Assembly (NCBI GenBank): GCA_003990765.1
Contig: RBNJ01000070.1
Location: 1 to 44,256, forward strand
Direction: 5' to 3'
Source: Jimgerdemannia flammicorona
Lineage: Eukaryota
DNA length: 44,256 bases
Below are positions 9,154 through 44,256 of this stretch, one piece after another; the stretch's first letter is position 1, and each line of letters starts with the position of its first letter. A program made the position numbers and the translations under genes. The notes under the pieces are model-generated. The model was not told where the DNA came from and searched no databases. It worked only from the letters and a program-made list of their open reading frames with translations.

Positions 9154-9171
9154 AGATCAATTGATAACATA

Positions 9172-12800: not shown

Positions 12801-12888
12801 GGAGGAGCTCCTCTATGGGGATTGGGTAGTGGGTGGTGATAATGTATACTTATTCATAGACTGGTAATAAAGACAGAGTCCAAGTGAC

Positions 12889-12919
<31 letters not shown>

Positions 12920-14169: not shown

Positions 14170-14199
14170 AGGAACAGACCATCCTTTAGTGGGAGCTGA

Positions 14200-15423: not shown

Positions 15424-15796
15424 ATATAGATATAAGTATAAGTACCATTTCTAGGCTTCTATGCTGGATTTATGAGAGCATGGTGGGTTAATAAGGAAAC
15501 TCATAGTATTGGTAAGAATATAAATAGCTGATATAGAATATATTTACTAAGACTGCTTAACCTCAGTATGGGTGATGGTAAAGGTACTCTTACAATGAGA
15601 AAGAAGTATTAGCCTAGCTACAGTGGCTTGTAGCATTTCTTATTATAGCACCTATAAATGACATTATTGTTTTTGTAAATAAAAATATTATATTATATTA
15701 TTTTTTTATAGACTGATATAATAAAACAATCATTATGTACTTTACTTAATATAAAGAAAATAAAAATACATATAATTTTTATAAATAAGAAATAAT

Positions 15797-16317
15797 AAAG
15801 TGTCTTTTGTATGAAATGTATATAAGATGAATTATGCTAAATCGGGTATACTGATATAAGCTGGGTCAATGTGTTTAGTGAATATAAAAATATATACTTC
15901 TCAGGCCTGCTATTGAAGAGACTATATATTTATTGTTTCTTATTCAAGAGAGAAGGGTGGGATAGGTTGTATAAACTGATTACAGAAACTAACTAAGTAT
16001 AAAGACATAGTCTATATACTTGATTATTAAGATATGATGTATACTCAGTTGCTGAGAGAGATATTATATATAATATATGCTAAAATATTACTAAGCTATT
16101 TGCTGCTGGCATCTTGCTAGAGAACTTAGACTAGACTAATATTGTATAAGAAACAGTATAGCAGGAACTGAGACTAGACTAAGACTATATAAGAAATAAT
16201 ATAGCAGGAAACTAATACTAAGTTAAGATTACATAAATAATCTAAAAGATTATATAATAGTGATTTATCTGTAGTTTTGGCCACTTTGCTGAAGTTTGAC
16301 CTATATTTACAACTCTA
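15797..16317. mobile_element. ~530-bp repeat, copy 2
   Basis: Colinear with 6304-6835; head-to-tail with copy 3. Confidence 0.8.
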
Positions 16318-17791: not shown

Positions 17792-17990
17792 ATATATTTT
17801 TTAAGCTGATGAGAAATCTGTATACTAATAAATGAATAGTCAACATCATATATCTGAGGTTATATTATTCAAAATTCAATATGCTATCCTTTTCTTTGAG
17901 AATAATAAAAACTTATTGGAGGACAATGTATCTATGTAAGCTATCTGATGCTTGTGAAGAATTTAATTAATAGCAGAAGCACAATTTGAT

Positions 17991-19306: not shown

Positions 19307-20344
19307 TTACGGCATCACAACAGCCATTACAACGCTGACAACAACCGCTAACCCGACCGCCACCACTACCATTGCAAAGGCTATCAACACATATCCCAAC
19401 CAATGATTTTCTTCCTCAAGCCTCGTCGGTCTATGTATCCCAGCAAGGATCAACGCTTCTAACTCCCGCGCCGCATCCATAACCATCCGATCATTCTCAC
19501 CCAACGGCACAACCTCGACCCCACCACGCTCCGCGTTCACACAAATGCAAGCCACTACCGCCAAAGCCGCTTTCGCCTGGCGTGCAACGATACCACGATA
19601 TTCACGCGCCCGCCTCTCGACCTCCTCACGCGTCCGTCTCACAGCCTCCTTCTTCCTTTTGCCCTTGAGTTTCAAGTCGTAATGCGTCGTGGCCACTACA
19701 GCAAGGACACCGGTGCGGGAAGCAAACACTGCTGTACCTTCTTTCATCCCGATACTTGTGGAGTTGCGTTCCAAATGAAGTTCGTAGAAAAAAGGAAACC
19801 CTGAGAGGATCTGTTTGAGGATCGGTTGGCTTGGCCCAATGCCACAAAACTGGTATCTTCCGGAGCTCCAGAATAGTATCGGTCTCAGAAAGACGATTGG
19901 TTTCAGGTGGTTTGCAATCAGACGGTGCATGACGCTGTCCTTGTCGAAGGCAATGCCGTTCAGTTGCCGAAGCTGTTCCCAGTGATTTGCAATAATATCT
20001 CTCTCGGAGCGTTTGACCTCAACGTTCCACTCCAATGCTATCTCCAGAACAGTTCTGCCGACACGACGGGTCTCCTGCTGTTGCCAACCGAACTGGTAAA
20101 CGAGTTTCCCAGCCACCGCGACAGCGGTCAGGCTCGTGCTTGTCTGGCTACTGAAGCGCCGAATTATCGCCTCGAACACCGTGCCGAATACACCACGGTC
20201 GCTGGCCATCCCGAAAGTAGACGCGTGCTCGGAAAATTGGAAGCCATAGTCGGCCAGAGCCGCGAGGTGGAGGCGGCAGAGATGGAGGATCAGCTCTCTT
20301 GAGCGAGGGTGTTGCCAAAATGAAGCCAACGTACTATCTGGCAT
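19307..20344 (-). CDS. Uncharacterised ~345-aa protein with C-terminal transmembrane helix (tail-anchored); probable 5'-UTR intron 20382-20479
   Basis: Long open frame in CpG-normal DNA; first ATG at 20344; GTGAGT donor, CTAAC branch point and TAG acceptor upstream; hydrophobic C-terminus WLGYVLIAFAMVVVAVGLAVVVSVVMAVVMP. Confidence 0.75.
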   Translation of the reverse strand: MPDSTLASFWQHPRSRELILHLCRLHLAALADYGFQFSEHASTFGMASDRGVFGTVFEAIIRRFSSQTSTSLTAVAVAGKLVYQFGWQQQETRRVGRTVLEIALEWNVEVKRSERDIIANHWEQLRQLNGIAFDKDSVMHRLIANHLKPIVFLRPILFWSSGRYQFCGIGPSQPILKQILSGFPFFYELHLERNSTSIGMKEGTAVFASRTGVLAVVATTHYDLKLKGKRKKEAVRRTREEVERRAREYRGIVARQAKAALAVVACICVNAERGGVEVVPLGENDRMVMDAARELEALILAGIHRPTRLEEENHWLGYVLIAFAMVVVAVGLAVVVSVVMAVVMP

Positions 20345-20472
20345 GAGTGTGGCAAATGAAATGGGAAAAGGGATGATTTGGCTATCACCAGTCAATGTCC
20401 ATGAAGGGATAGCACGTTAGAGACACGTCATCACTCGATTAGACAATCTATTTATAATTTTTTACATCACAC

Positions 20473-24519: not shown

Positions 24520-25490
24520 ATTATACTACTATAAAGTACTATTGTCAATTTTTTTAAAGATATATACTTTTATACAAATACTTCTTTCATTGAGATATCA
24601 GCAAGAATTTTCTTACTAATATATATTGGAAGCAATTTTGAAGCATATTTACTAAGTCAGATATCTATATATATCAGTTGTACTTAAATAAAGAAATAAA
24701 AAAAAGAAAAAGATTCTTTGCAAGTAGTAATAGAATATCAATGACTGGAGTTTTATTTTATTTAAAAACAATTATGTAAACATTGATTCCAACTTAAATT
24801 AGAATTTATTCAAACTAGTAATCAAAGTCAATTATAAAATCTCATAATACAAATATATAAACTTTACTTAGAAAATAGACAAAACTAAATCTTATATCTT
24901 TTTCTGACTAGTTTTGTAATATTTTTACTTTTATAGTTTTTTTTCTTTATATTTCTTATAGGGCAGAATAATGAGATAGTTGTAATTAGGGATGTAAGAA
25001 TGATATATATATGTATAAGTATATATATATATATCATAAAAATTACACAGTATACTAGGATATAAATTTACAACTATAATGGTATATTTTTCAGATTATA
25101 GTAAGAGACTGAATATATAATCTAAGTATATATATATCTAATATATATCTAGAGTAGCTTCAGTTATAATTTAGATATATAATAGATATATATTATTATA
25201 ATTCTAGAACTATTTTAGAGCTTTTACAATTCTACTTAGATATATTTCAGATATACTTTAGTGCTGTTCTAGAGTTTGAATAGATACTTTATATATATTA
25301 TTATTATAGATATTACTAAATATTTAAAAATATATATTATAATTATATAAAAGTTAATAGTAGACTATGAGATATGGAAAGTTGAGAGAGATTTATAAAG
25401 GAGACTGATAGGAGAAATTAAGAATAAGTGATTAACTATTGGATAAGTACTAGCTATTTAGATTAGGCTTACTAGATATTAGCTATATGT

Positions 25491-27021
25491 TGTCATATAG
25501 TGGTCACTGAGTTTTTCAAATATACCAGATTCTCTTCAAGGTGTATCTCTTAGACTAACTCAAGTTTGTTATAAGTAAGTTCTTATTAGAGTACCTTTCC
25601 AAGGTCTTATAGTCCTCAAACTTCTTATCTTTAACTATCTTGTTATCTCTTAGATTGCTTGCAAGGAAGTGTGTATAAGTGAAACTGGAACTAACTTTAT
25701 TTCAGAGGAAATAAGAGGAGTATTTATACAAAATATAATTCAATAGTTGCTAAGATATAAAGCTAAATATAAATTCCAAAACTAAAACTACTAAGTTTCA
25801 GGGTCAGCACTGATGGTTGTACAGGTTTAGAATGCTGATATAATTCAGTATCACATCAGAATACTGGTGCTGGAACAATTTCGCATCACCTCAGAATGCC
25901 AGTACTGGCATTATCTAGTGTTATATGAGAATATCGGTGCTGGCATTATTTAGTGTAATAAGGAACTTAGAGCAGAAAGTTCAGAACCAGGGGGGCTTCA
26001 TCCTCATCATCATCATCATCATTGAAGGAGATGAGATCCACAAATTCATTATTTTTGTATGCTTTGATGTCATATGGGATAATGTCATCACTGATGACAT
26101 CATCATGTTTGGTGGCAGGAAAAATCAGGAACAAGATCTGGAGCTCTCCAGTCTATGAGGTTCTCTTCCACAAAATAGGGGACAAATGTGGGGTCTTGGG
26201 GAGATTTAACCCAGATACTTAGGCCTTAGAATACTGAGATCAACCCTTACAGGAATTGGTCTGGGTTATCCTGGAGGATAGGGTGCCAGAAGTCTTCTAC
26301 TTCATCACTATTGAGGGTGATAGTGGACTGGGCTTCTGTAGCCACTCTGGCTTCTAGTGCATTGATATGGCAGGATGATAGGTCTCTGAAATCTGAGCCT
26401 CTAATATACTCCAAGTTGGGGATTGACCATAGTGCATACCTGAAGATCTGATGGATCTTCTTAGCTATTCTTGTTTTGTGTATATCCATAGAAGTGGCAT
26501 CTTGTAGCTCTTGAGTGCTGGCCTGTAGGAACTCCCAGCAGAGGAGGTTTCCTATTTTGTACTTCTGCTACATTTGGAGGCATTTGGTAGCAATGGTGAT
26601 TCTTGTTTCATTTTACAGTGGTAGAGGATAAAGTGATAGGGATCTGCAGTACCCAGGTTGATACTAGGAGTCCTTCTTGAGTGGGTCCTCATAGCTCTTC
26701 TGATGTCTTGGAACATTCTTTCTTCAACTGAGATGCCTTGGTAATTCCTTGACCTTGAGGTTTGGTGAGCAGCAGGCATTTTATTTGTGATAAGTCTTTG
26801 AGCTATTTTGGGATTGGTGGTTCTTATTGGTTGCTGCTACTGTGGTTCCTTGATCCTTCTTTTATATTCTTCAGGATGCTTATACTGTAATCACAATGAC
26901 TTACAGTTGGTCATCATTGCTCATCTCATATGCCATATGATCTCCTTATACTCTGATCTGATAGCTTGCAAGGAAAGGTTGTCTCCTATACTGATGTCAT
27001 CATTCTGAGGTCACCATTACA
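25491..27021 (-). repeat. Element B 3' LTR (1531 bp)
   Basis: Direct repeat of 32714-34280; TG...CA ends. Confidence 0.95.
25967..26779 (-). pseudogene. LTR (U3)-encoded ORF, 3' LTR copy
   Basis: MPAAHQTSRS...; joins ORF-track pieces 26552-26779 and 26247-26489; small frameshifts. Confidence 0.75.
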
Positions 27022-27031
27022 TCTTCCTCCT
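27022..27031 (-). promoter_or_regulatory. Polypurine tract of element B
   Basis: AGGAGGAAGA immediately before the 3' LTR TG on the minus strand. Confidence 0.85.
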
Positions 27032-27334
27032 GAATAAGGATCTTCTCAAGCATCCTTATTCATTGGTCCAGTCTTGAAAAATTTGCTGATCCCATAACCT
27101 CTGACAAGGGGTCGAAAAGTGGTATTTATGGGCTGGTGTCTTTCCTTTGTATTTTGGTGTGATGGTGAAGGGTCGCTCTCTTCATATAGAGCAAGGGCCT
27201 GATTCTGATCTTGACCAATCAGTTGATGGTTCAAACTCCTCTGACTTTGAAAGTCTCATGGATGAGTAGTTGCCAGTGCTGTATCTCTTAGAGAATGGTC
27301 CAGACAGATAGCCTGCTGGTCACAGAACATATTG

Positions 27335-28576
27335 TTACGATTCACAGACTAGAACCTCATAGGCAGTCATTACATTTTGCTTCTCTTGTATAGGTTCATG
27401 GTACTTCTTGAGTCTGTTCCTATGTACCATGGTAGGCAGTATGGTCCCTGAGATTTTTCTAAGCCAGAAGGTGGTTCCCTTGATATCTTGCATGTAGAAG
27501 GGTCCTTCCTATTTGGGCTCCAGTTTTCATGACCATGAGGCTTCTACCATATTTTGATACAGTAGAACCTTTTCTCTGATTCAGATAGGTTCTAGGGCAT
27601 TGTGATTCTTTTCCACATTCTTCCTTGTCAGTACTTGTAACTTGGTGATGTAATTTTCAGCCTTCTTCCTGATTTGGTATAGTCTCCAGATTTCTACATC
27701 AACCCATCTCTAAGTTAGGTCTAGATTCGTGGCTGAGGTTCCATCAGAATCTTCTTCTCTAAAGAGCAGCTCTCTTGGGGTAAAGTGTATGCTCTGTGAC
27801 CATATGTTTCATAGGACAGAGAGGACAGTTGGGAGATAGTTATCCCAATTCTCATATGTCTCTGAGATCTTTGCTAGGATGTTCTTAAGGGTCTTGTTGG
27901 TTCTCTCTGTCTGTCCATTTCCTTGAGGGTGGTATGCAGTGGTCTTGATGTGCTGGATCTTGTATTTCTGATATATTATCTCATGGAATCTATTGACAAA
28001 TTCTGTTCTGCAGTCTGTTGTGATTTGCTTTGGTGTCTTGTAGTGGCAGATGATTTCTTGGTATAGGAAGTTGGCCATAGAGAGGGCATTGGCTTCTTGT
28101 AATACTCCTACCTCTATCCATTTGGTGAAGAGGTCTACAATAACTATAATATAGTAGTTTCCTGATAGTGTTACTGGTAGTGGTTCAATGATATCCATTG
28201 TGATGTGGTGGAAGGGGATAGGCTCAATTCTTGATGACCCAGATGCCTGGTCTTGCTGATCTTGTTTCTGTTTTTGGTACTTGTCACACTCTTTAACAAG
28301 CAGGTCTTCTTCTATCTTAGACCACTACATGGTTCTTCTTGCCTTATCATATATGTTGGTTCCTCCTAAGTGTCCTTGCTCGTATACTTCCTTCATTACT
28401 TGATACTTCTTGTGTTCAGATATTACTAGCTTTCCTCCTTTTCTGAGTGTAGTGTTGTCTAGTTCAAACTGTTTCCAAGTCTAGTTGATGATGTTGATTG
28501 TCCAAGGTTCAAGGTGGTTGGGCATCTTCCACTACCCAAGGTAGCTGATTAATCCATAGTATAGCTTCTTGTTCAT
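27335..28576 (-). pseudogene. int: Element B integrase with its own ATG
   Basis: MNKKLYYGLISYL...GHLGG...ECDKYQ; MDIIEPLP, TTD, ERTNKTLK, EGPFY; no chromodomain seen. Confidence 0.9.
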
Positions 28577-28601
28577 GTTGAATAGTCTTGATGAGAGTGT
28601 T

Positions 28602-31600
28602 TTAGAGTGTCCTTGAGAGTACATCAGTATTGGTGTTGGTCTTTTCTGAGCAGTGCTTGATAGTACAGTCATACTCTTGCAGCCTGTAGATCTATCTGGT
28701 ATATATTCCTTTGGGGTTCAGAGTGTGGAATAGCCAGGCAAGAGCAGAGTGGTCTGTTTGAATGGTGAAGTGTTTTCCAGCTAGGTAGTAGTGGAACTTA
28801 TCTACTGCCCAAACTACTGCTAAGCATTTGAGCTTGCATGACTTGTAGTTCTGTTCTGCTTTGTAGATACCTCAGCTTATATAGGAGATGATATATTCAT
28901 GTCCATCTTTCTTCTGAGCTAGAACTGCTCCAAGTTCTATAGCACTCATATCTGTCTACAGGATGAATTCTAGGTTCCAGTCTGGTCTTCTGAGGATAGG
29001 TGCTTGAGTCAACCTAGTCTTGAGTTCATTGAAGGTTTCTTAGTACTTCTTGGTCCATTCGAATTTGGTCTCCTTCTTCAGTAGCTCATAGATAGGTGCT
29101 GCAATATTGGAATATCCTTTGATGAATCTTCTGTAGTAGCTGGCCAGTCCAAGGAAGGCATAGACTTCTGTAGTTGTTCTGGGTCTTGGGTAGGCTGCAA
29201 CAGCCTCAATCTTCATGGGGTCTGTGTGGATTCTGGTCTGGTTGATGAGGTGTCCTAGGTAGGCAATTTCTTGAGCTGCAAACTTACATTTTTTGGGCTT
29301 GATGTAGAGGCCATGCTCCTTGAGCCTCTTGAGGGCTAGCTGTATGTGATTGACATGTTCTCATGCAGTGTTGCTGAAGATGATCACATCATCAACATAG
29401 ACAAAGAGCCATTTTCCAATCTTGTTGCTGAAGACTCTGTTCATCATTCGCTGAAAACTTACTGGGGCATTACATATTCCAAATGGCATTTGCAGATAGA
29501 TATAGGTGGTGTCAGGTGTGATGAAGGCTGATTTCTCACTGGCATCTTGAGTGAGATCAATCTGATGGAAGCCTGAGAATAGATCCAGGGTGGTGTAGTA
29601 TTTGGCTTCACTTCCAAGGGTGGTAAGGATTTCTTGAATATTTGGCAAAGGCTGCCTATCCTTCTTGATGATAGCATTGAGCTTCCTGTAGTCAATGCAG
29701 AGTCTTGGTGCAAACTCTCCAGGCTTGCTTTCTTTCTTTGGGGCAAGGACAATGAGTGAGGCCCAGGGGCTGATAGCTTGCTTGATGATCCTGGCTTCTT
29801 CCATTTTCTTGAGTTCTGCTCGCAGCCACTCTCTGTAAGCAGGTGGTATGGGTCTGGCTTTCTGGTAGATGGGCTTGGTATCATCAGTATCAACTTCATG
29901 ATAGTACTTGGGTTCTTGATTGTGGATATCTCTGAAGTCCATAGCAAATACTCCTTCATTCTGGTGCAGGATCTTGAGAAGTTGTTCCTCCAGGGGAAAG
30001 TTTTCTCCAATGATATATGTGTGCTTGTTCTGGTCCTTGTCTTTCTTGTGCTTGAGTTCAGTAATCTTGGTAGTGGTATAGGCTCCTCTTCCAGTAGATC
30101 CAAAGTCTTGTTCTCCTCTCTTGGTCTTGATGAGTTTGATGGCTTCAATGATCTTGGGCTTCTTGATTTCGTGGATCAGCATCTGGCCAATCCTGTCATA
30201 CTTCTTGACTTCGAAGGAGGTGGTGTGGTTGTGATTTTTGACTATGAGAAAAATCTCACCAGTGTAATTGGGGTCAATTACTCCTCCTTCAACTGAGATT
30301 TCACTTTTGGCCAGACTGCTCCTGATCTTGATAATTCTGGCATAGTTCTCTAGCAGCTTGACTCTAATTCTAGTATCAAGTAGGGTGGTGGTCTGTGGTT
30401 TAAGGGTAGCATCTTGAATACTGGCAAGGTCCATTCTTATGGCTCCTTTAGTCTTATATTCTGGGATCTTGACTTTGGGGTGAAACTTCTTGACCTTGAG
30501 GGTGATGTCTGATTCTTGTTCCTCCTCATCATCACTGTCAGCTTGGAGCTCTGGGGGCTGGTTATCTTCTTTGGCTTTCCTTTTTGCTTCAGCAGCTTAT
30601 TACTCATATTTCTGTTGGTATATTTTCCTGACTTCACTGATACAGAACCAGCAGTCATTCAGGTGTTCAGAGCAGTACATCCTAGTACCATGGGGGCATC
30701 TTCCTTGAGGGGTATAGCCTTCGATAATCTTATTGTACCACTGCTCATCTGTGAGCTTGGGTGTCTTATTCTTGTTCTTGTTCACCAAGTGCATGAAGAC
30801 CTCTGTGTCTTTTTCATCTTCTTTCTCTATGTCTGGTAGAACTCTTTTATGGACATTGATAGAGACTCGTACCTTTCTTCCTCTATAGTTGATCTGCATC
30901 TTCTGAGCATTGAGGTCAATGATGGTCTTGGCCTTGTGAAGCCATTGATTGCCAATAAGGATGTCATAGTTGGTGGCACTTGTAACAATTATGTCTACTG
31001 ATATGGTAGCTCCTCCTATCTTGATGGAGACTTCTTGGATTTTGCCAAGGAGGATAGCTCATGTACTATCTGCTGTAATATAGACTATCTTGGTGGACTC
31101 TTCAATGTCCCAGCCTAGGTGGTCAATTGTCTTCTTGCTCATGAGGCATTCTCCAGCACCAGTATCAATGATGGCATCAAAGATACAATCTTTGATCTGA
31201 TATAGGGTATAGGCTGATGTCTTGCACTAGTCTTTAGATTCTTTACCAGAGTTCTTGGATTCTTCCTGTGCATTGTGAGCTTCTACAATCTTGTACTCTT
31301 GATTCTTGGCAGTAGTTGCAAGTCCTACTCTCAACTGCTGTCTGAAGGCAGGGACTTCAGCTAGCTGTCCAAAGGTAGTATTGACCTTCTGTTCCTTGAG
31401 ATCCTTGTAGATGTCATACTGGTGGATCTTGATCTTGCGCAGCTTCTGTTTCTTCTTGCTTTCACTTTCTCCTAAGACTGGAGTAGTGCCTTCAATGATT
31501 TGACAGGCAGCTTCATCTAACTCTATGTCTTGATCAATTTCCTCGAGTTGGATCTTGCTTTGAATAGTGATAGCCAGGGTCTTCTTTGGTCTTCCAACTG

Positions 31601-32594
31601 GCTTGCTGTTGCTCTTCTTATCATAGGGCTTAGACTGGGTTCTGGTATCTTCAGTAGTAGGGTAGAATTCAAGCTCCTTATAGTATTCTTCATCATCAGT
31701 ATCACCAATCTCCTCGATGACTACTGCATTGGTTTGTTCTCTAGTTCTACTAGTATTGCTTGGTTGGGCTTTGTGTCTTGTTTCGGTCATGCAATTCTTT
31801 GCATAGTGGCCTTATTCTCTGTATCTGAAGCATGTGATATTGTGTTCTTCTGTAGTAGCTGCAAATCTCTGCACTGGTCTCCTGTTAGCACTTCGGACTT
31901 CTTTAACAACATCACCAAGGTGTGTAGTCATCTCAGCGAACTGCTTGGCAAGTTCTTCCACTAGGTCAGCTTTGGCTGTCTTGGGGGTAGGTGGGATTGG
32001 TTGTTTGTTTACAACTGTGGCAGGTAAGATACTAGTTGGCTTTGATGGCTTCATCTTGATGCTAGTTATTTTCTCTATTGAGTGTTTGGCAGAGTGTCTG
32101 GTAGTCCAATATCTCTATGCAAAGACCACTTTCTGATCAAGGGTCAGTGTAGCTAGGGTAGACCAGATTGCTAGGGCAATTTCAGGGTGAACTCCTTTGA
32201 GAAAAGTTGAATCTGCTATTTGTTCCTTGAGATGGTCATCATAGTCAGCCAAGACAATCTGGTGGCAGATTTGGGTATAGAATGAGTTGGGATCTTCACT
32301 AAGTTCCTGGCAGATAGTATTGAGTTGATCCTTGAGAGCTTGCTTGATCTCTTCAGTATAATATATTGTTCTGAGAAATGCCTTTATGTTGGCAAGTTTG
32401 GCTGCACTAGCATTAGCAATAGTGGCTGCATTTAACTTGTCTCTAGCAGGTCCTCTGAGGCTGACTGGTAGAAGAGCCAATTGAGCATCCATACCAAGGG
32501 CTCATATAGCAGTGAATTGTTCAAAGTCTTCAATGAAGGTCAGGATTGACTCTTCAGTAGTATATCCATAGAATATGGGGGGATGCATTTCCAT
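28602..32594 (-). pseudogene. gag-pol: Element B single-frame gag-PR-dUTPase-RT-RNase H
   Basis: MEMHPPIFYG; CFRYRE*GHYAKNC; IIDTGAG; RSSL, GVIDPNYTGE, RIGQ, RGEQDFGSTG (~30091-30505); YVDD; ends DVLSRTL*. All pieces share one frame. Confidence 0.93.
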
Positions 32595-32692
32595 CTTATC
32601 TTGAATTCTTGCAGGGATGACTCTTGTAGTCAGGGTAGTTATTGTGGGGTTGTTCGTTTTTCAGCTTGAAAGTGAGGGATTCATCTTGAATA

Positions 32693-32710
32693 ACTAGCCA
32701 ATGGGTACCA
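32693..32710 (-). promoter_or_regulatory. Primer-binding site of element B (cognate tRNA not assigned)
   Basis: TGGTACCCATTGGCTAGT 3 nt inside the 5' LTR end. Confidence 0.65.
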
Positions 32711-32713
32711 AGT

Positions 32714-34280
32714 TGTCACATAGTAGTCACTGAGTTCTTCAAATATACCAGATTCTCTTCAAGGTATATCTCTTAGACTAACTCAAGTTTGTTATAAGTA
32801 AGTTCTTATTGGAGTGCCTTCCCAAGGTCTTATAGTCCTCAAACTTCTTATCTTTAACTGTCTTGTTATCTCTTAGATTGCTTGCAAGGAAGTGTGTATA
32901 TGTGAAACCAGAACTGACTTTATTTCAGAGGAAATAAGAGGGGTATTTATACAAAATATAATTCAATAGTTGCTAAGATATAAAGCTAAATATAAATTCC
33001 AATAACTAAAACTACTAAGTTCCAGGATCGGCACTAATGGTTGTACAGATTAAGGATGCTGGTATAATTCAGTGTTATATCAGAATACCAGTGCTGGAAC
33101 AATTTCGCATTACCTCAGAATACCAGTGCTGGCATTATCTAGTGTTACATAAGAATACTGGTGCTGGCATTATTTAGTGTAACAAGGAACTTAGAGCAGA
33201 AAGTTCAGGACCATGGGGGCTTCATCCTTGTCATCATCATCATCACTGAAGGAGATGAGATCTGTAAATTTGTCATTTTTGCGTACTTCAATGTTATGCA
33301 GGATGATGTCATCACCAATGACATCATCATATTCAGTGGCAGGGAAATTGGGAACAAGATCTGAAGCTCTCCAGTCTATGAGGTTCTCTTCTACAAAATA
33401 GGGGACCAGTCTATGAGGTTCTCTTCTACAAAATAGGAGATAAATGTGGAGTCTTGGGGAGATCTAACCTGGATGCTTGGGCCTTGGAATACTGAGATCA
33501 ACCTTTGCAGAAATTGGTCTGGGTTGTCCTGGAGGATAGGGTGTCAGAAGTCTTCTACTTCATCACTATTGAGGGTGATAGTGGACTGGACTTCTGTAGC
33601 CACTCTTGCTTCTAGTGCATTGATATGGCAGGATGACAGGTCTCTGAAATCTGAGACTCTAACATACTCCAAGTTGGGGATTGACCATGGTACATACCTG
33701 AAGATCTGATAGATCTTCTTAGCTGTCCTTGTTTCGCATATATCCATGAGAGTGGCATCTTGTAGCTCTTGAATACTGGCCTGTGGGAACTCCTGGCAGA
33801 GGAGGTTTCCTATTTTGTACTTCTGCCACATTTGGAGGTATTCAGTAGCAATAGTAATCCTTGTTTCCATTTCATGGTAGTAGAGGATAAAGTGATAGGG
33901 ATCTGCAGTACCCAGGTTGACACTAGGAGTCCTTCTTGAGTGGGTCCTTATAGCTCTTCTGATATCTTGGAATATCCTTTTTTCAACTGAGATGCCTTGG
34001 TGGTTCCTTGACCTTGAGGTTTGGTGAGCAGCAGGCATTTCATTTGTGGTAAGTCTTTGAGCTATTTTGGGATTGGTGGTTCTTATTGGTTGCTGCTACT
34101 GCAGTTTCTTGATCCTTCTTTTATATTCTTCAGAATGCTTGTACTATGGTTACAATGACTCATAGTTAGTCATCATTGCTTATCTCATATGCCGTATGAT
34201 CTCCTTGTACTCCAATCCGGTGGCTTGTAAGGAAAGGCTGTCTCCCATGCTGATGTCATCATTCTGAGGTCACTATTATA
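32714..34280 (-). repeat. Element B 5' LTR (1567 bp)
   Basis: Direct repeat of 25491-27021 plus a 35-bp tandem duplication at 33371-33440. Confidence 0.95.
33191..34038 (-). pseudogene. LTR (U3)-encoded ORF, 5' LTR copy (~270 aa reconstructed)
   Basis: 164-aa open stretch, then *HPILQDNPDQFLQRLISVFQGP... and acidic tail FSDDDDKDEAPMVLNFLL*. Confidence 0.8.
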
Positions 34281-34691
34281 ATGTTTATGGATGGGCAGTG
34301 ATTGGCACTTAGACTGTAAGTCATAAGGTAGAAGTGACTGATTTTAGATCTATTGAATGGCTGATGGAAGAGATAGGGACCTAGAGAAGGACTCTATAGG
34401 AGGTTGGTAGAAAAGATCTGCAGATAGAGTAGAGAGAGGATTAAAGTGGCTAAGGAGTTGGTGTATTTTCAAAGAGATGGGGAAGGGGAGAGGGAGAGAG
34501 GGGGGGGGAGTGAAGTCTCTCAAGAGATTGGGTGAGGGGAGGGTCTGTATTAGTATAATATAGATTAGTAATAAGAATAGCAAAGTGAAATCCTAGTAAC
34601 TATAAAATATATATATATATATATAGAAAGTTAGAATATAGTAGATTGTCAGAAGACAGAAAGCTAAAATAAAGTGAGTTATTAAGAAGCT

Positions 34692-34798
34692 AGAATATAG
34701 TAGATTATTAGAATACAGCCAGTTATCAGAATATAGTAGATCTTCAGAATATAGTAGGTTGTTGGAATATAGTGGGTCTTTGGAACTCAGTAGAGTAG
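34692..34798. repeat. 18-bp tandem repeat (~6 copies, consensus agaatatagtagrtyntc)
   Basis: Direct reading of the sequence. Confidence 0.7.
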
Positions 34799-34854
34799 AA
34801 GTCTATTAATATATAATATAATAGTAGTATCAAAGAGGAAGACAGTATCATTCA

Positions 34855-35887
34855 GTGAGTTATAGAGATATTTGCTAACTAGATAATAAAATAAAATAAA
34901 TAGAATAATTATAAGGCTTTAGTCATAGAGATATTTACCAATCAGATAATAAATAGAATAGTTATAAGGCTTCAGTCATAGAGATATTCACTAACTAGAT
35001 AATTAAATGAAATAAATAGAAAGGTTATAAGACTTCAGTCACAGAGATATTTGCTGATCAGATAATAAAATAAATAGAATAGTCATCAAGCTTTAGTTAC
35101 AGAGATATTTACTGACCAAATAATAAAATAAAATAAAATAAAATAAAATAAATATAATGATCATAAGACTTCAATTATAGAGATATTTACTAATCAGATA
35201 ATAAATAAAATAAAATAAATAGAATGGTCATAAGGCTTCAGTTACAGAGATATTTCCCAATTAGATAATAAATAAAATATAATAAATAGAATAGTTATAA
35301 GGCTTTAGTTATAGAGACATTTACTAACTAGATAATAAAATAAAATAAAATAAATAGAATAGTCATATATAAGGCTTCAGTCACAGAGATATTTACCAAC
35401 TAAATAATAAAATAAATAGAATGGCCATCAAGCTTTAGTTACAGAGATATTTGCTAACTAGATTATAAAATAAAATAAAATAAATAGAGTAATTATAAGA
35501 CTTCAGTTACAAAGATATTTACAGATCATATAATAAAATAAAATAAATAAAATAGTTATAAGGCTTCAGTCATAGAGATATTTACCAACCAGATAATAAA
35601 TAAAATAAATTAAATTAAATAGTCATAAGGCTTTAGTCACAAAGATATTTGCTGATCAGATAATAAAATAAAATAAAATAAATAGAATAGTCATAAGGCT
35701 TCAGTTATAGAGATATTTACTAATCAGATAATAAATAAAATAAAATAAATAGAATGATCATAAGGCTTCAATCATAGAGATATTTACTAACTAAATAATA
35801 AAATAAATAAAATGGCCATCAAGCTTCAGTCATAAAGATATTTACTGACTAGATAATAAAATAAAATAAAATAAATAAAGTAGTTAT
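34855..35887. repeat. ~60-bp satellite, ~16 units, with variable (AAAAT)n
   Basis: Core aggcttcagtcatagagatatttactaatcagataat repeated; cut by element C. Confidence 0.92.
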
Positions 35888-36094
35888 TGTGACATACGCA
35901 ATTGAAAACAGAGTACTGGTGACTGCTAAGATCAGATGACATAATGGCATAACAATCAAATAGACAGTCTGACCCATTAGGTGATCATTCCAAAAGAAGA
36001 CAAGATGATCTAAGCCAAAATGAAGACCACGTTATTTAAGGAACCATACTCTACCTCAGGGATCAGCACTAAAGAACCAAGTACCCACCACACA

Positions 36095-37081
36095 ATGTCT
36101 CCCATTCGCCGATCCAACCAGACCTCCCACCGCTCTACCCCTTTGCCTAGCCCAAAGACCCTGATCTTTGAAGCTATCAAGAAGGCCATCTGGTGCCCAG
36201 ACACTTCCGAACACTTGAACTTCTATACTGAGGACCTTGGACACTTCATCAACTACCAGTATATAATAACCCAACAGCTCAAAGATACTACTGAATGAAT
36301 GACCCTCTGGCATGACTATGAAATCAGACACCGCCTTCGCAATGAGACTCAAGAAGATGACCAGGAAGACCTCATTGCCAAAATGTTAACCACCAGCTGG
36401 CTAATCAAGAGAGCTCTCCATGTCCACCAAATCTTCTGCCATATTTCCTAGGCTATAGCACACTTGCAAGGAGTAACAGCTGGTAGCCTCTCCCGCCTTT
36501 CAACTGAAGATGCTGACTGGATAGAATCTGAAGTAACCAATGCTATTGGCAGCAACTGCATTACCATAGGAAGCCAACAAACCGAACCTACTCAGCCAGG
36601 TTTCCACACCACCTCACTCTGAGACAACCATCAAGGTCACCTAATAAGTCTTATGGAGATATTCGAAGGACCACCCATCACTATAGAGGCACTCATTGGA
36701 GCTACCCCAACCACCCACCACCCTGTCAGCCACAATTCACACCTCATCATTTGGGAACCGAATCAAGAAGAAGTCCAAGAAGTTCCTGTCTTTGAAGAGG
36801 AGGCCCAAGAACTCCAAAACCCTGCCCCTGAAGAAACCCCCTCTGACACTGAAACTGACGAGCCTTCAGAAGAAGAAGAGGAGCAATAGAGAGTCTACCA
36901 GTCCTCTGTCTGCATTCAAGCTGTTCAAGGGTTGGAGAATGTTGTTGAAGATGACTGGCTACTTTTCTACCCCCTCACCTCTTGGCCGGTGCTTCCCCCC
37001 TTTGAGGAGAGATATGATGAAGAAGAAATCACAACCCAGCAAGATTTGCCCGCCACGGACAAAGGGTACTATTTCCTCTAG
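36095..37081 (+). pseudogene. LTR (U3)-encoded ORF of element C (~328 codons, 4 in-frame transition-type stops)
   Basis: One frame from MSPIRR to KGYYFL*; aligns over ~190 aa with element B LTR ORF. Confidence 0.78.
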
Positions 37082-37105
37082 AGTACTGCCCATCAGCCGT
37101 GAGAA

Positions 37106-37320
37106 CCCAGCTTTTGTCAGCAGGTCTGAATCCAGTGTTGCTACCCAGTACTACTGTTTTCAGCATTTTGTCAGTAGGTCTGAATCCAGCATTGCCACCC
37201 TCCACAACTGCTTCTGGCAACAATCATCGTATCATGTCAGCTCATCCGAATCCAGCGTTGCTACCCAGTACCACCATTTTCAGCATTTTGTCAGCAGGTC
37301 CGAATCCAGCATTGCTATCC
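37106..37320 (+). repeat. Tandem subrepeats in element C U3
   Basis: 4 copies of tgtcagcaggtctgaatccag.rttgc. Confidence 0.8.
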
Positions 37321-37448
37321 CCTACAACCCAATCCGTAGTAAACAATAGCCTGCACCTCGCATCGTGCAAACCAATAGTATGAGTTCACCACAACATAGT
37401 ATACCTTAGCCTTAGTTACACCCTCTCCCCCCATAGCTAGCAAACTTG

Positions 37449-37488
37449 TATAAATAACCCATATTCTTAGAGTGAATAAACCTCAGTC
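37449..37488 (+). promoter_or_regulatory. LTR core promoter / poly(A) module: TATA, AATAAA, TCAGT initiator
   Basis: agagtgaataaacctcagtc identical to 14464-14483 in A; equivalent module in B at 32913-32951 (minus). Confidence 0.75.
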
Positions 37489-37649
37489 AGCTTGTGTTTA
37501 AAAAGTAAAAAGGATTACAAAAGAAACCACTGCCTCCAAGAGACCGGATAAATTCTGAGAACAAGATAACAACCTAGAGCAATGGATCGCTCAGAAGTTT
37601 GAGTTAAAGAATTTTCTCTTACCACGGAAAGAAAACGTTACCTGACTGC

Positions 37650-37875
37650 CGCCATTCGAGACCCGAGACCCAGCCAAGGATTCAAGACCAGACCGCCATT
37701 CGGACTGCCATTCGGACTGCCATTCGAGACCCGAGACCCAGCCAAGGATTCAAGACCAGACCACCATTCGGACCACCATTCGGACCACCATTCGAGACCT
37801 GAGACCCAGCCAAGGATTCAAGACCAGACTGCCATTCGGACTGCCATTCAGACTGCGCATTCAGACTGCCATTCA
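37650..37875 (+). repeat. Nested tandem repeat in element C R/U5 (12-bp ccattcggactg within ~68-bp units)
   Basis: 3x ccattcgagacccgagacccagccaaggattcaagaccagac. Confidence 0.85.
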
Positions 37876-38373: not shown

Positions 38374-39252
38374 AGTTTTCAAAAGACTTGACCATTTGGC
38401 TCAAGAACCCAGCTATCTACAGTGGAGAACTTAGCAGGACCAAGTCAGCAACCAAACCAGGGGCAGCAACAGCCCTCCTCAGCAGAAAAGAAAGCCCACA
38501 CCCTTGTCAGAACAGTAGCCAGGACCCTATTCAACACCAGTAGCCAGAAAACCAAATCAGAAGAAAGAAGTGACCCAGACTACGGTTTGACTTCAAGAGA
38601 AAGGAGACGACTCAGAGGACAACCAGAACTGCCCCTTCAGATCCAAGACTTAGGCCAAGAAGAAGAAGAGAATATTCCTGAGGAGTATCAGACCCTTATC
38701 CATAGGAAGAACTCAGACAGAAGTGACTACATAACTACTGTTGTTACTCGAGTCACTCTACTAGACCGGGTATACTTTGAAACATCAGAAGGAGAAGAGG
38801 ACTATTATCCATATCAACCAGAGCAAGACGATGATTGGGGATCAGACTATTAAAGGGATGAATTCAACCTATACTATTATCCAGACAGCGACACTGACCC
38901 ACAGCAGCAACCAGATGAACAAGACCTCACCACTTCACAACAGCAAGGGGCAGACAAACTCACTATCAGTTATATCAGTCCACTCCCACTATCAGTTGCT
39001 CGAACTTCAGTACTCTGGTCACTCACACCTCGCCACTATCACCAGTCCATCAGAAGATCTCCACCACTACCCAGGACTTCAACTCTAGCATTAATTAGAA
39101 GGGCCAGATTACCCTCACCCTCACCAAGACACTGCCCTCTGCCAGCACCACTAGATCATCAAGTACTAGCACCACCACCTTCCCCATCACCCTGAGGATC
39201 TGCCAGATCCCCTACCCCTGAACAATACTCAGATAGTGAAGACGAGCCAGAC

Positions 39253-42200
39253 ATGAGCTACTTTCAGAAGTTCCATGGTGCAGACAATGAAGATATCAAG
39301 GAATTCTTTGGAGAAATTGAAGTTCAAGCAGCCACCAAACAATGGGATGCTGCGAGAAAACTCAGAATTGTGGAGTCGCTCCTGAGAGGACCAGCCCTAC
39401 AGAGGTATAATCAAGCCAAGCAAGCCGGAGGAGAAATCCATACAGAGGAACTGAATGATGGCCTTCAACCTGATAGGAACCATGTAGCAAGATACATGAT
39501 TCACAAAGCCTGGCTCCGTGCCCAGTTCAATGGATTCGAGCGCCAACAAGAAGCACAGGAGGCTTTGACCTATATGAGCCAAGCTGCCAATGAAACCCCC
39601 AAGAGTTTCTACTATCGGATTTAAGCTCAAATGATCAAGGTGAACCTTCAACCAGCAGTCCAACTGGCCCTAGCCTCAACTACCTTCCTCAATGGCTTAT
39701 ACCCAGAACTCTGAAGGCAAGTTATCAGGATGGGATATCAAAACATTGAACAGCAAGTTGCTGGAGCACAAGGATGTTGGGAAGCAGATTATAGACCAGT
39801 ATAACAAGTACAAGGCTATCCTGAGCCAATCTGAGCCAAAACCTCAAGGACCTGAGGAATAACCATGGAGCAAGAGAATGCCTTCCTCAGAGCCCAGATA
39901 GCCAACTATGAGAACAGACCAGCACCTACAAATCCAACTCCATTCAGGCAACCACAGCAGCAGCCACCATCAAGAGTTCAAGAAGACCCCATGACAACGC
40001 TCACCAAGCAAATGAAGGACCTGGCCATTGCAGTTACTCAGCTGAACAACCAAGGTAGAAGACAACAAGACTACCATCGTGATAACCGACCAGACTACTG
40101 GCAACAAGACAACAGAGGTCCTGCCCCCACACTATCAGCTACAACTACAGCCTCACCAGCGACTGGTTTCTATGGTCCCACCTGCTCCAACTGCAAAAAT
40201 CAAGGCCACATCCAGAGGAATTGTCCAAGAAACCAATCCACCCAGTTCAATGACAGAAATGTCAACCTCTTTCAGGTAGATGAAGAGACTCAGGAGATGG
40301 AAGAAGAAGCAGCCTGGCTCCATGGTCAAGAAGATGATATCTACCCATACTTTGAGGCCTTTTCATCCAAGGTGACATGGGAAGCTGCCCCAGCAGAGAC
40401 CAGAGGATGAGGAAGACTATGAAGAAACCCCCCACCTCAACTGCCAGTAATAATATCCACAGGCAAGCATCCGCGACATGGCCATTCTTCTTCAGACACT
40501 CCACAAGAACAGGAGAAGCAAGTGAGAAGAGATACTCCTGAACCAGAAGCCGGACCATCTAGGACAACCCCCAGCTCTACTTTGCCAGACCTTGAAGAAG
40601 ATGAGTATATGAGCATAGAATCTTCAGCTGATGAAATGCCCATCAGGAATGAGAGACTACACCCTAAGGGACCAAGACACCAAAGAAGCAGCAAGCCCCA
40701 TGCAGCAGCCTCACTTTGGGAACATATCCATCTACAGAATGCTGGTCTTACAGTTGAGCAAGTCCTCAAGAATGCACCAGAAGTCAGGCGAAAATTCCTG
40801 AAAGAAGCTAAGGAAGACACCAAGAGACTTCCAGTCCAAGGACCACATACTCAAGAACCTAGCACTATCCACACAGTCCATGAGAGCCAGCGACATGAAC
40901 ATCAATCTACAAGACTCACCAATGGAAAAGTGCATGGTGAAAATGCCAGAATTCTCATCAATACTGGAGCAGCAGTATGCATCATCACCCAAAGAATGTT
41001 GGAGCGAATTGGATGGGGAATAGATGAAGGAACCAAAGCAAGAGTTATCATGGCTGACGGATCAGCTTCCACACCCCTTGGACTTGTCAGAGACATTCCC
41101 ATTCAAGTTGGAAAGGCCCGCCTCAATGTACCCAAAGCTGTCGTGACCCCCGCAATCTCCTATGACCTGATCCTGGGAACTGACTGGTTAAGCTGAGTGG
41201 GAGCCAATGTAGATATCAAGAAACAACTCCTGGTCTTCTCCACTCATGGACAGAAGCACAAGGTGCCCATTGACTTGAAAGGATTATCTAAAAAGACGAA
41301 TCAAGCCTCAGAAACAGAATGGCAAGGACATGGCGACACCCCCACTACTACTGAGGATGAAAGTAAGGCCAATTTCCTACAAGAACTAGGAAGTGATTTC
41401 GATGCCCCAAGGGACCAAGAAAGCGAACAAGAAGACTCTTTCATTGGAGTTATTGGTATTGAAGGCCTGGAAGAAAGCATTGATAGAGCCATTAATGCAA
41501 GGGCAGCACTTGAGTTTGCAGGACCCTCTGCTCAACCACCACCACTACTGGTAGAAAATCAGATCATGCGAGCCTTTCATCAAGGCATATGCAAACACTT
41601 CATCAGCTTCCACTCACCAAGAGATGATTGCAGCAATTGCCGAATCCTGGATCTTAAGAAGGTTCCAATGCCAGAAATTGATGACAAGGATGAATTGAAG
41701 CAAGCACCATCCCACAGCCAAATACAACCTCCAACCCCAAAGACCTTCAAGAAGACCTATAAGGAAGGACAAAAGATCCTCGCCTGCCAAACATTCGAGT
41801 CCCTTACCATCGAAGGAGAAAGCAACAGCTCTTACACTATCACTCGGGCCCTCCAGATCACACAGCCCACCTATGATAAGTATCAGAAGAGATTCCCTAC
41901 CAGTAGGGAGGTCAAACAGCAAAATGAAGACTTTGTCAAAAAGGGATATTGTGATTGTGGAAAAACCTTTACCTGCTATTAGTGTGAACATCGAGACATT
42001 CACCTCAGCGAAGATGTCTACAAGAGCCGAGTCAAGAGAAAGGACCCCACCCTGCAAGAACCTTGAATTCGCTGGGTCTGTCGGAAGTGCAAAGAAATCA
42101 ACCATGAAGGAGATTGCAAGTTCAAGAACAAGACCTCCATCTGGGACCTACCATTGGAAGTTCTTGCCATCATTCACTGGTACTGCCGCCCTCATCAAGG

Positions 42201-43164
42201 AAAAGAAGGTATCAATCTTGTCTTCATCCTTATGGAAGCTCTGGACCCTCTAGGAAAGACTGGATTCAATTACACAAGAAACTCAAAGACAGGAGCTCAC
42301 TGGCCTTTCTTCAAACTGGAGTGCATGGACTTCTCACCTACAATGGCAACAGCTGAAGTGCCATTTCTCAAAGCTCAACCAATTATCCAGATCAAGCTGC
42401 TTTCACCCTGGGCACAGCCACCTCTTGCACAAACAGAAGGATCAGTTGGCTATGACCTCTGCCTCCCCTACCAAGCAAGAATCCGACCCAGAAGTACCAG
42501 GACTTTTGACCTACAGATCGCACTCGCTATACCACCTGGGCATTATGGACAATTGGCCTCAAGATCCTCATTGGCAACCAAAGGAGTCACAGTAGAAGGA
42601 GGAGTCATCAATCAGGACTACCGAGGTCCCTTGAAGGTCATTATCCACAATTCTAGTAGAACCAGCCGATTCTTCAGTCCTATGGAAGCCATCTGCCAAA
42701 TCCTGTTTATCAAGATATTACAGCCAACCATCCAAGAGGTAGACTAACTAGAAGATACCAACAGAGAACAAGGAGGCTTTGGAAGCACCAATAGAAATCT
42801 ATGGACACCACCTATCAAGGTTCATTTGGCAATAGTTGCTCAATTCTGACAAATGAGACCCCACATCTGCCATCCAATCTGAGCAAGAGAAGATATCCTC
42901 CTACAGCCCTACCAGCAAAAAGGCCTAGATGTGCACCTACCAGTAGAAGCAAACAACTTAATATTTGCACCATCATTGGAGCTTCAAAAGGAATACCACA
43001 TCCTCCTGGCTGAAGAATGAATTCATGACCAGATGTCACCAATCCACATCTCTATCAAAAACTCGGGCTTCGAAGTGATAACTATCTCCAAGAGAACAAC
43101 ACTGGGATATTTCGAACCACTGATAGACATCTATGAGGAAGAAGTCTTCGAATTCTTGGGAAAC
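39253..43164 (+). pseudogene. gag-pro-dut: Element C ORF1: Gag, CCHC knuckle, protease, accessory block, dUTPase, dUTPase-like domain in one frame
   Basis: FHGADNEDIKEFF; CSNCKNQGHIQRNC; ILINTGAAV (D>N) and DLILGTDWL; GYDL, RSSL, GVINQDYRG, GGFGST. Confidence 0.92.
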
Positions 43165-43203
43165 AGCAAGCCCTCTCTGGTGAGACTGATGGTACCAGGG
43201 AGG
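43158..43203 (+). promoter_or_regulatory. -1 programmed ribosomal frameshift signal
   Basis: In-frame G GGA AAC, 7-nt spacer, 10-bp stem cctctctggt/accagggagg; RT is in the -1 frame. Confidence 0.82.
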
Positions 43204-44256
43204 AAGACTCAGCAAATTCAGCAATCAAAGCCGTTGACATCGAGACAACTCTAACCAAGGACTAGCAACAACAAATACAGGAGTTAATAGAGGAGTACAA
43301 AGATATATTTACCACCACATATGATAACTTCCCACCATATCAATATGGAGAACACCCTATACATACTGGAGATGCAAGACCAATCCGACAATGACCCTAT
43401 CGAACACCACATCATCTGATTGAATTCGAACAATAACACATAGATGAAATGCTATGAAATGGAGTCATCAGACCTTCATCAAGTCCCTGGGCTTTACCAG
43501 CAATCATAGTACCAAAGAAAGGAGGATAGAGATTAGTCGTGGATTTCAGAAAACTCAACAAAGTTACCACTGAAGATGCCTATCCACTGCCAAGAATTGA
43601 TGACCTCATCAATGCCCTTGGAAAAGCCAAATACATGACCACTACCAACCAGTTCCAAGGATTCCAAGTAATATCCATTGCCAAAGAAGATATCTGCAAG
43701 ACGGCCTTCATCACTAGACGAGGACAGTATGAATACCTATGAATGCCCTTTGGACTCTGCAATGCACCTGCCTCATTCCAACGAATGATGAACTGTGTCT
43801 ACCGGGACCTTATCGGAAGAAATGTGCTAGTGTACATAGATGATGTAATCATCTACTCTGAGACATTCAAGCAGCATTTGCAAGACCTCTGCAAAGTATT
43901 CAATACCATTCGAAATTCAGAACTCAGACTCAATGCCAAGAAGTGCTTCTTCAGAAAACATCAAGTCGAATATCTAAGATATGTTATTTCAGCTCAAGGA
44001 ACACATGCCAACCTCCACAAGGTGGAGAAAGTCAAGAACTACCCAACCCCGACCTCAGCAAAGGAGACCCTATCCTTTCTTATACTGGCATCCTACTATC
44101 GATGATTCATCCCAAGGTTTTCAGATAAGGCAGCACCTCTCCGAGATATCTCCAAGAAGGACCAACCATTCTACTGGAAAGAAGAACAACAAAAGTCATT
44201 CGACCTACTCAAGAAGGTCCTTACCGAAGCCCCTGTCCTGGTGTGACCAGACTTTG
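43165..44256 (+). pseudogene. pol: Element C reverse transcriptase (partial pol)
   Basis: VDFRKLN, YPLPRIDD, MPFGLCNAPASFQR, YIDD. Confidence 0.95.

Follow-up and report, generated by a model that had tools for sequence, protein, structure and literature searches.

The stretch of DNA analysed here, 44,256 nt of contig RBNJ01000070.1 (forward strand, positions 1 to 44,256) from the Jimgerdemannia flammicorona assembly GCA_003990765.1 and hereafter called the window, contains three decayed Ty3/gypsy retrotransposons, designated A, B and C. In silico analysis of their long terminal repeats (LTRs) established that both LTRs of element B contain an open reading frame (ORF) in the sense orientation of the element, and a related ORF is present in the presumed 5′ LTR of element C. 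The first-pass annotation, made from the sequence alone, had described these ORFs as a conserved protein-coding gene carried inside the LTRs of two divergent elements, and this gene, its product and its possible role are considered below. The coordinates of the features are collected in Table 1.

Elements B and C and the ORF in their LTRs

The two LTRs of element B are 88.3% identical over 1568 columns of a self-BLASTN alignment, the raw span of which is 25489-27019 versus 32712-34278. The LTR starts with TGTAATGG, altered by transition mutation in the 5′ copy, and ends with TGTGACA, and the element is flanked by the 4-bp target-site duplication ACAT (25487-25490 and 34281-34284). The polypurine tract AGGAGGAAGA (27031-27022) adjoins the 3′ LTR, and the sequence TGGTACCCATTGGC (32710-32697), which resembles a primer-binding site (PBS) and starts with TGG, is located 3 nt past the 5′ LTR. 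Pfam matches in the interior of the element follow the order aspartic protease (PR; RVP_2, E 2.5e-5), dUTPase (1.2e-22), reverse transcriptase (RT; RVT_1, 4e-21) and integrase (IN; rve, 4.5e-12), the dUTPase thus being situated between PR and RT. Direct LTRs, target-site duplication, PBS-like site, polypurine tract and the gag-PR-RT-IN order together identify element B as a member of Ty3/gypsy (Metaviridae). Element C starts at approximately 35888 with TGTGACA, immediately past a 1-kb AT-rich tandem array, and the window ends within its RT, such that only the 5′ side of this element is in the window and its 3′ LTR lies beyond the window end. The Pfam matches of element C are zf-CCHC (4e-4), gag-asp_proteas (2e-12), dUTPase (1.2e-24) and RVT_1 (1.5e-18), and its RT shares 37% identity over 340 amino acids (aa) with that of element B, in keeping with the description of B and C as two divergent gypsy elements.

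The coordinates that had been given for the three ORFs were found to be correct, and each ORF is in the sense orientation of its own element. The LTRs of B and C follow a common order of parts, consisting of the LTR edge, some 200-240 nt that include a TATA-like word, the ORF, tandem repeats and a core module, from which approximately 200 nt extend in B to the PBS-like site. Tandem repeats had been claimed just downstream of the ORF in each LTR and were recovered there by repeat search. Within the core module TTGTATAAATA is identical between B and C, and approximately 20 nt further on it is followed by AATAAA-CAGT. Each LTR has two TATA-like words on the sense strand and no more, while AATAAA is present once in the B 5′ LTR and in C; in the B 3′ LTR another copy is found shortly before the ATG, and past the start codon of the ORF the sense strand offers no AATAAA other than that of the LTR. 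The upstream TATA-like word of B, TATAAAAG, recurs 80 nt before the ATG of an intact 291-codon ORF of the same family on the metagenome contig L001 (1535 nt), and in B, C and L001 alike the base at -3 relative to the start codon is an A. Conservation between B and L001 extends over the 21 nt that precede the start codon (83% in a 41-nt match), even though their proteins are just 40-43% identical, and no B-L001 alignment was obtained for the other non-coding parts of the LTR.

All three copies of the ORF in the window are dead. The copy in the B 5′ LTR contains one in-frame stop and has lost its frame through a 35-nt tandem duplication (33371-33437), and is matched by the profile hidden Markov model (HMM) of the family with E-values of 4e-58, 1e-18 and 3e-8, while the copy of element C matches the intact C-type protein P0007 at 76% over 314 aa (E 4e-150). 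As judged against the codons of aligned intact relatives, the stops in the window copies are all of the C-to-T or G-to-A transition type, which fits the extreme CpG depletion of elements B and C, the observed/expected ratio of CpG being 0.00-0.07 in the coding parts of B and 0.24-0.26 in the ORF and gag-pol of C, with an excess of TpG plus CpA (1.15-1.27) in both elements. This loss of CpG points to methylation-linked deamination of host repeats, or to deamination resembling repeat-induced point mutation, and element B looks older or harder hit than element C. The profile HMM, built from a 22-sequence alignment, was run against all 1030 six-frame fragments of the window and matched only the three copies, with eleven fragments at E<=0.019 and the next best at E 3.1.

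Coding evidence, relatives and predicted fold

The LTRs of B and C give no BLASTN match to each other (word 11, E<=1e-5, alignments of less than 80 nt dropped), which bears out the statement that they lack extended DNA similarity, and beyond the ORF they share no alignable DNA except for short motifs. Yet their protein frames, read through with X at each stop, align by BLASTP at E 1e-14 (57.8 bits; 47 of 173 residues, or 27%, identical; 6 gap positions), and the alignment that had been drawn by eye is thus real. Comparison with shuffled controls, the check to which the first-pass annotation had tied its claim, gave a Smith-Waterman score of 150 for B against C as compared to a mean of 33.8 (standard deviation 5.3, maximum 61) for 500 shuffles, which is 22 standard deviations over the shuffle mean. 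When the frames of the two LTRs were paired in all 36 combinations, the pair of sense ORFs ranked on top with 57.0 bits (E 5e-12), followed by an antisense pair with 27.7 bits (E 0.006), the others reaching at most 23.1 bits, and the intact protein P0007 aligned with the B 5′ LTR copy at 78.6 bits (E 9e-19, 31% over 200 aa).

The distribution of differences over the codon is that of a coding sequence. Identity at codon positions 1, 2 and 3 was 0.44, 0.56 and 0.36 for the B 5′ LTR copy against C, 0.52, 0.66 and 0.37 for the same copy against L001, and 0.51, 0.61 and 0.31 for C against L001, with p-values for position 2 versus position 3 from 1e-4 to 2e-9 (the latter for C against L001 over 214 codons). 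Between the families represented by B, C and L001 the proportion of synonymous differences (pS) was 0.75-0.80, and hence saturated, and that of nonsynonymous differences (pN) 0.38-0.51, and hence unsaturated, which argues for long purifying selection on the LTR protein. The check by the ratio of nonsynonymous to synonymous substitution rates (dN/dS), as proposed in the first-pass annotation, was thereby answered in direction, dN being clearly far below dS, while saturation of dS blocks a formal value; this comparison was made between families only, as the only second DNA copy available within a family was that in B's own LTR pair. The two LTR copies of B are identical at 0.909, 0.903 and 0.909 of the three codon positions, an even spread that indicates neutral decay since insertion and represents the expected control. 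The claim of a conserved protein-coding gene is therefore upheld by the codon-position pattern, by the contrast of saturated pS with unsaturated pN and by the existence of intact relatives.

The divergence of the LTR protein between B and C (27-31% identity) appears about as large as that of gag (25%), PR (31%) and dUTPase (32%), and the GC content of the ORF resembles that of its own element (0.44 versus 0.43 in B; 0.48 versus 0.46 in C). Similar divergence coupled with an element-like base composition suggests that the gene was present in the common ancestor of the B and C families and does not represent two recent captures. We are confident that the ORF is a real gene under selection, carried within the LTR of this clade.

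A search with the B protein returned four predicted proteins of 174-271 aa with 73-86% identity, and one with the C protein returned three of 175-325 aa with 74% identity. A profile search of 1.84 billion representatives yielded 11 proteins at E<=1e-3, none of which is longer than 342 aa or fused to another protein. Cluster look-up listed 21 members, designated 'hypothetical protein' or unnamed and mostly located on contigs of 0.6-2.4 kb, all of them from JGI/IMG or ENA assemblies; P0022 and P0011 are on longer contigs, of 19.4 kb and 4.8 kb respectively. Retrotransposon LTRs count as control regions without coding function and are masked by annotation pipelines, which could explain the absence of NCBI and UniRef entries among the 21 members listed. 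Intact relatives are 247-342 aa in length and were found in environmental assemblies only. Profile scans for further DNA copies gave L001 alone from metagenomes and none from viral contigs or genome contigs, and a further homologue search with the enlarged alignment added no new members. The 22-sequence alignment comprises at least eight subfamilies, across which frame, start codon and domain order are kept; an MPxxR start is common to five subfamilies, and the core motifs YEIGHxL, AxKIHQIFRHxPxxIxxL, LSxxxxxxLExxV and DNxxxxLxxLxxxFxGPxI precede a variable acidic tail. L001 was considered as a possible junction of pol and 3′ LTR, but upstream of its ORF no frame resembling pol was seen. Two copies of a 33-nt word, 82% alike, flank this ORF at 170-202 and 1481-1513, 1311 nt apart, and could represent regulatory sites that are repeated or mark where another LTR copy begins.

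The protein is soluble and consists of a short N-terminus rich in arginine and serine, a helical domain of approximately 190 residues and a strongly acidic tail of 56-147 residues with interspersed hydrophobic residues. The acidic tail that had been noted by eye was borne out in the relatives, its net charge being -14 to -26 in nine of the ten full-length members and -7 in P0016; hydrophobic residues account for about a quarter to a third of the tail in nine of ten. The motifs DLISFxD and LNFLL recur in the tails of several subfamilies, being kept within subfamilies and partly between them. Nine full-length members contain neither a membrane segment nor a signal-like start, the highest mean Kyte-Doolittle value over 19 residues being 1.09, and the conclusion that the protein is not Env stands. 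The first-pass annotation had called for AlphaFold modelling with a Foldseek search. An initial AlphaFold2 run on the whole protein with nine sequences was poor (predicted local distance difference test, pLDDT, 37.4), while a run on L001 protein residues 1-215 and an alignment of 20 sequences gave a confident model (pLDDT 81.9; predicted template modelling score 0.76) that is nearly all helical and includes one helix of 37 residues. Foldseek returned no significant match for this model, the best E-values being 0.7 in PDB and 0.18 in BFVD, and VIA-align against 48,161 representative chains gave none at Z>=5 (best Z 4.0). The best ESM Atlas score of 0.91 was to unnamed bacterial clusters and is inside the chance range of the tool. 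Sequence searches were equally negative, as Pfam gave no family for P0001 or P0002 at E<=1, no family for more than two of 22 members at E<=10 and no helix-turn-helix (HTH) match, and the PDB sequence profile search gave one match, at E 0.21 and unrelated. HTH domains of the ParB/KorB/SopB type account for eight of the 50 VIA-align matches listed, where they are superposed on model residues of approximately 70-180 with Z 2.7-4.0 and root-mean-square deviations of 4-7 Å, values below the noise for helical models, and we treat the recurrence of the ParB/KorB type as a lead only. The fold of the helical domain is predicted with confidence but has no solved relative.

Position of the ORF in the LTR and possible role of its product

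The first-pass annotation had assigned the ORF to the unique 3′ region (U3) of the LTR. The module of TATAAATA, AATAAA and CAGT was indeed found downstream of both ORFs, as were the tandem repeats, and because module and repeats follow the ORF, the latter would be situated in U3, an assignment that derives from the position of these motifs. TATAAATA together with the repeats upstream of it may constitute the promoter of the genomic RNA, with CAGT as initiator and AATAAA as a poly(A) signal just before the start site; with AATAAA in that position, the signal would be transcribed from the 3′ LTR only. The TATA-like box 62-87 nt before the ATG could then drive separate transcription of the ORF. 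On balance the ORF probably lies in U3 and has a promoter of its own. Each LTR would in that case be a self-contained unit, such that an mRNA of approximately 1.2-1.4 kb, ending at the LTR poly(A) site, would arise from the 5′ or the 3′ LTR and perhaps also from solo LTRs.

We lean towards the overall reading that the ORF is an accessory gene of a dUTPase-bearing Ty3/gypsy clade, wholly inside the LTR, in U3 and with its own promoter, whose product is a trans-acting regulator. Of the interpretation initially offered, namely a selected accessory factor such as a transactivator or an anti-silencing protein encoded in U3, the coding nature of the ORF, its selection, its presence in the B LTR, its acidic tail and the exclusion of Env are borne out, while placement in U3 and in an LTR of element C is inferred from motifs and layout. 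As to function alone, the likeliest role is regulation in trans of the element's own transcription or silencing, and we put its chances at about one in three. If so, target recognition would fall to the helical domain and the acidic-hydrophobic tail would serve as effector on the promoter or chromatin of the element, with the tandem repeats 33057-33184 and 37103-37328 as candidate binding sites. In its most specific form, which we regard as rather unlikely, the LTR would be an autonomous gene, the regulator of which, with its hitherto unseen helical fold, switches on the downstream genomic promoter or shields it from silencing in a feedback loop of the Tas/Tax kind; the element would then be a 'complex' retrotransposon, and solo LTRs could remain a source of the factor, acting in trans on all members of the family.

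Several observations weigh against this reading. Location inside the LTR is demonstrated by both copies of B and for B alone, the second LTR of C being outside the window, and the C copy would be placed within an LTR by the likeness of its layout to that of B. No copy of the ORF was detected in element A by HMM or by pairwise scoring. The helical domain is near neutral, with an isoelectric point of 5.6-6.9 in nine of ten members, and as it is not basic, nucleic-acid binding gains no support from it; Pfam, PDB sequence and fold searches likewise brought up no DNA-binding or activation domain of a known type. As for the intact relatives, they were called as genes on short contigs from environmental assemblies, such that their intactness is partly a matter of ascertainment, and they may lie outside LTRs. 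TATA-like words are present at 1.5-1.9 per kb in the window, and at that density one less than 100 nt from an ATG is just mildly unlikely. Motifs only underlie the assignments of promoter, start site, poly(A) site and U3, all of which are putative.

Among the alternative explanations, the least credible is that there is no gene at all and that conserved cis-regulatory LTR DNA happens to be open in one frame. The U3 regions of LTRs do hold conserved regulatory motifs, and the window copies all have stops; however, the absence of BLASTN likeness between the LTRs despite the agreement of the protein frame (E 1e-14), the frame-pair and shuffle results and an identity that peaks at codon position 2 and is least at position 3 already contradict this explanation, and it is also hard to reconcile with intact ORFs of 247-342 codons in relatives and with an alignment that AlphaFold2 folds at pLDDT 82. 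A gene without a role, that is a host gene fragment or a small mobile element caught as a passenger in an ancestral LTR, would be in line with the want of a recognizable retroelement domain in the protein and with the lack of a detected copy in one of the three gypsy elements of the window. We nevertheless consider it quite improbable, as at least eight subfamilies have retained the frame, the start codon and the order of domains despite saturated synonymous sites, the divergence of the ORF is similar to that of gag, PR and dUTPase, and the 1.84 billion representatives contain no longer or fused relative as a host gene family should give.

Two further explanations accept the gene and differ as to its place or its task. 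The ORF may lie in the repeat (R) region or the 5′ leader, in which case the upstream TATA-like box would set the start of genomic RNA, the ORF would be the first cistron ('ORF0') of the full-length transcript and AATAAA would be used only at the 3′ LTR. The presence in B, C and L001 of a TATA-like word 62-87 nt ahead of the ATG, the A at -3 and the conservation between B and L001 of the leader of approximately 21 nt, when the rest of the non-coding LTR is unalignable, are all compatible with such an arrangement. It is, however, difficult to square with the second and better conserved TATAAATA after the ORF, just upstream of which the tandem repeats are found. Moreover, transcripts that start upstream would meet AATAAA approximately 1.1-1.4 kb on in the 5′ LTR, which is too far for promoter-proximal suppression of the kind known from retroviruses, and an upstream ORF of 250-330 codons would strongly hinder translation of gag; location in R or the leader thus seems improbable. 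Alternatively, the product could be an adaptor that acts in other steps of replication or against host defence, the tail motifs DLISFxD and LNFLL binding a host or element protein in the manner of Nef or Vpr. Short hydrophobic-acidic motifs conserved in subfamilies and partly across them, together with a helical domain that is not basic and a protein that nothing in the PDB sequence and fold searches ties to DNA, speak for such an adaptor; the resemblance of the motifs to known linear motifs is tentative, though, and we judge this role unlikely.

To our knowledge, a gene inside an LTR is otherwise known from a few complex retroviruses. In the portions of the literature accessible to our search, LTR-borne ORFs turned up for mouse mammary tumour virus (MMTV) and its relatives only, and none for LTR retrotransposons. 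The sag gene of MMTV is the closest known case by position, being a complete sense ORF in the LTR, hence present twice per provirus, and located upstream of the core promoter, as appears to hold here. Sag is a type II membrane glycoprotein, whereas the protein described here has no membrane segment and no Pfam match, and its host is an env-less Ty3/gypsy element and not a betaretrovirus. By proposed logic the closest parallels are the 3′-end transactivators of complex retroviruses; foamy virus Tas/Bel1, which has an internal promoter, Tax of human T-lymphotropic virus and, by position, Nef of human immunodeficiency virus are likewise products of additional genes situated 3′-terminally or in U3. 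The likeness to Tas and Tax would consist of a folded domain with an acidic C-terminal effector and possibly a promoter of its own, but no similarity in sequence or fold was found, and the gene here is wholly within the LTR.

Additional ORFs are also present in LTR retrotransposons of the plant Tat/Ogre/Athila lineages and in elements of bdelloid rotifers, and the LTR gene resembles these as an accessory ORF of unknown function carried by a Ty3/gypsy element besides gag and pol. Those ORFs either precede gag or occupy the interval from pol to the 3′ LTR, whereas the present one is inside the LTR, unlike the cases described within the literature searched. Fungal elements with a dUTPase between PR and RT have been described from Postia placenta, and dUTPase-bearing elements also from Phanerochaete chrysosporium and Tuber melanosporum (PMC2864245, PMC5408684). 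An 'add. ORF' of unknown function is drawn for fungal chromoviruses (PMC2864245), and this ORF may overlap with the LTR gene. A selected gene in this position would be duplicated at every insertion, would survive as solo LTRs and would be placed where transcription of the element is controlled. Should it prove to be a regulator, it would bring a feature regarded as typical of complex retroviruses into env-less Ty3/gypsy elements and open a new way to study how such elements evade or adjust silencing by the host.

Features of the window and minor observations

Table 1. Elements B, C and A and the parts of the B and C LTRs, with positions in the window
Feature	Position	Strand	Basis and remarks
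Element B, full-length but decayed Ty3/gypsy (gag, PR, dUTPase, RT, IN)	25491..34280	-	LTR pair, ends, Pfam
B 5′ LTR, 1567 nt	32714..34280	-	self-BLASTN and end inspection
B 3′ LTR, 1531 nt	25491..27021	-	self-BLASTN and end inspection
ORF in B 5′ LTR	33191..34038	-	ATG 34038, stop 33191; sense to element B
ORF in B 3′ LTR	25967..26779	-	three in-frame stops, at least two frameshifts
TATAAAAG box, candidate promoter of the ORF	34118..34125	-	87 nt before B ATG; putative
35-nt tandem repeat x3.7, candidate enhancer	33057..33184	-	repeat search; between B ORF stop and core promoter
B core module (putative promoter, poly(A) signal and start site)	32913..32951	-	TATAAATA 32951-32944, AATAAA 32924-32919, GTCAGT 32918-32913
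Element C, 5′ part of presumed 5′ LTR	35888..37500	+	TGTGACA to core module; layout parallel to B
ORF of element C	36095..37081	+	ATG 36095, stop 37081; four in-frame stops, no frameshift
TATTTAAG, TATA-like word	36033..36040	+	62 nt before C ATG; putative
C repeats	37103..37328	+	between ORF stop and core promoter; two 94-nt copies 37115-37208 and 37235-37328, 85% alike
C core module	37449..37490	+	TATAAATA 37449-37456, AATAAA 37475-37480, CAGTCAG
Element C gag, PR, dUTPase and start of RT	38392..44256	+	Pfam; runs off the window
Gypsy element A	1..~6300, resuming ~12.9 kb (12900-15450)	+	split by LINE-like element

The AT-rich tandem array that precedes element C (34858-35888; GC 0.21; 63-67-nt units, approximately 14 copies, 75% matches) fills the gap from the flank of B to the first base of the C LTR and lies outside both LTRs; it may be a satellite or a remnant of another element. 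Downstream of the core promoter, element C contains a further 68-nt tandem repeat (37651-37866; x3.2, 89% matches), within which 12-nt units of GACTGCCATTCG are nested; it may belong to U5 or to the leader, no PBS having been found for C.

The RT of element A is 35-37% identical to those of B and C, and A is thus as distant from either as B is from C. A dUTPase remnant is present at 4231-4668 (E 2.9e-4), and an integrase remnant resumes at approximately 12.9-13.2 kb (rve, E 0.033, under the cut-off). Positions 63-212 match 15272-15421 at 91%, and these are probably the ends of the two LTRs of element A. Just past the integrase, in the presumed 3′ LTR, the ORF fragment 13828-14157 (+) contains the word YAIGEQL, which resembles YxIGExL, and an acidic end, a likeness by eye only; as a candidate fourth copy of the LTR ORF it was rejected, given an HMM score of -0.3 bits and a pairwise z of at most 2.8 (200 shuffles, nine family members). 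Nested in element A is a non-LTR retrotransposon resembling a long interspersed nuclear element (LINE), located at approximately 7000-12900 (+), for example 9154-11400, with matches to RVT_1 (E 7.8e-21) and, under the cut-off, to Exo_endo_phos (E 0.021); its plus strand is strongly G-rich, with a GC skew of up to +0.47. Outside of elements B and C, a repeat of approximately 300-540 nt is present in three copies that are 75-80% alike (6305-6843, 15797-16325 and 17480-17792), and the longest ORF outside the elements, at 19307-20416 (-), comprises 369 codons from stop to stop and has no Pfam match.

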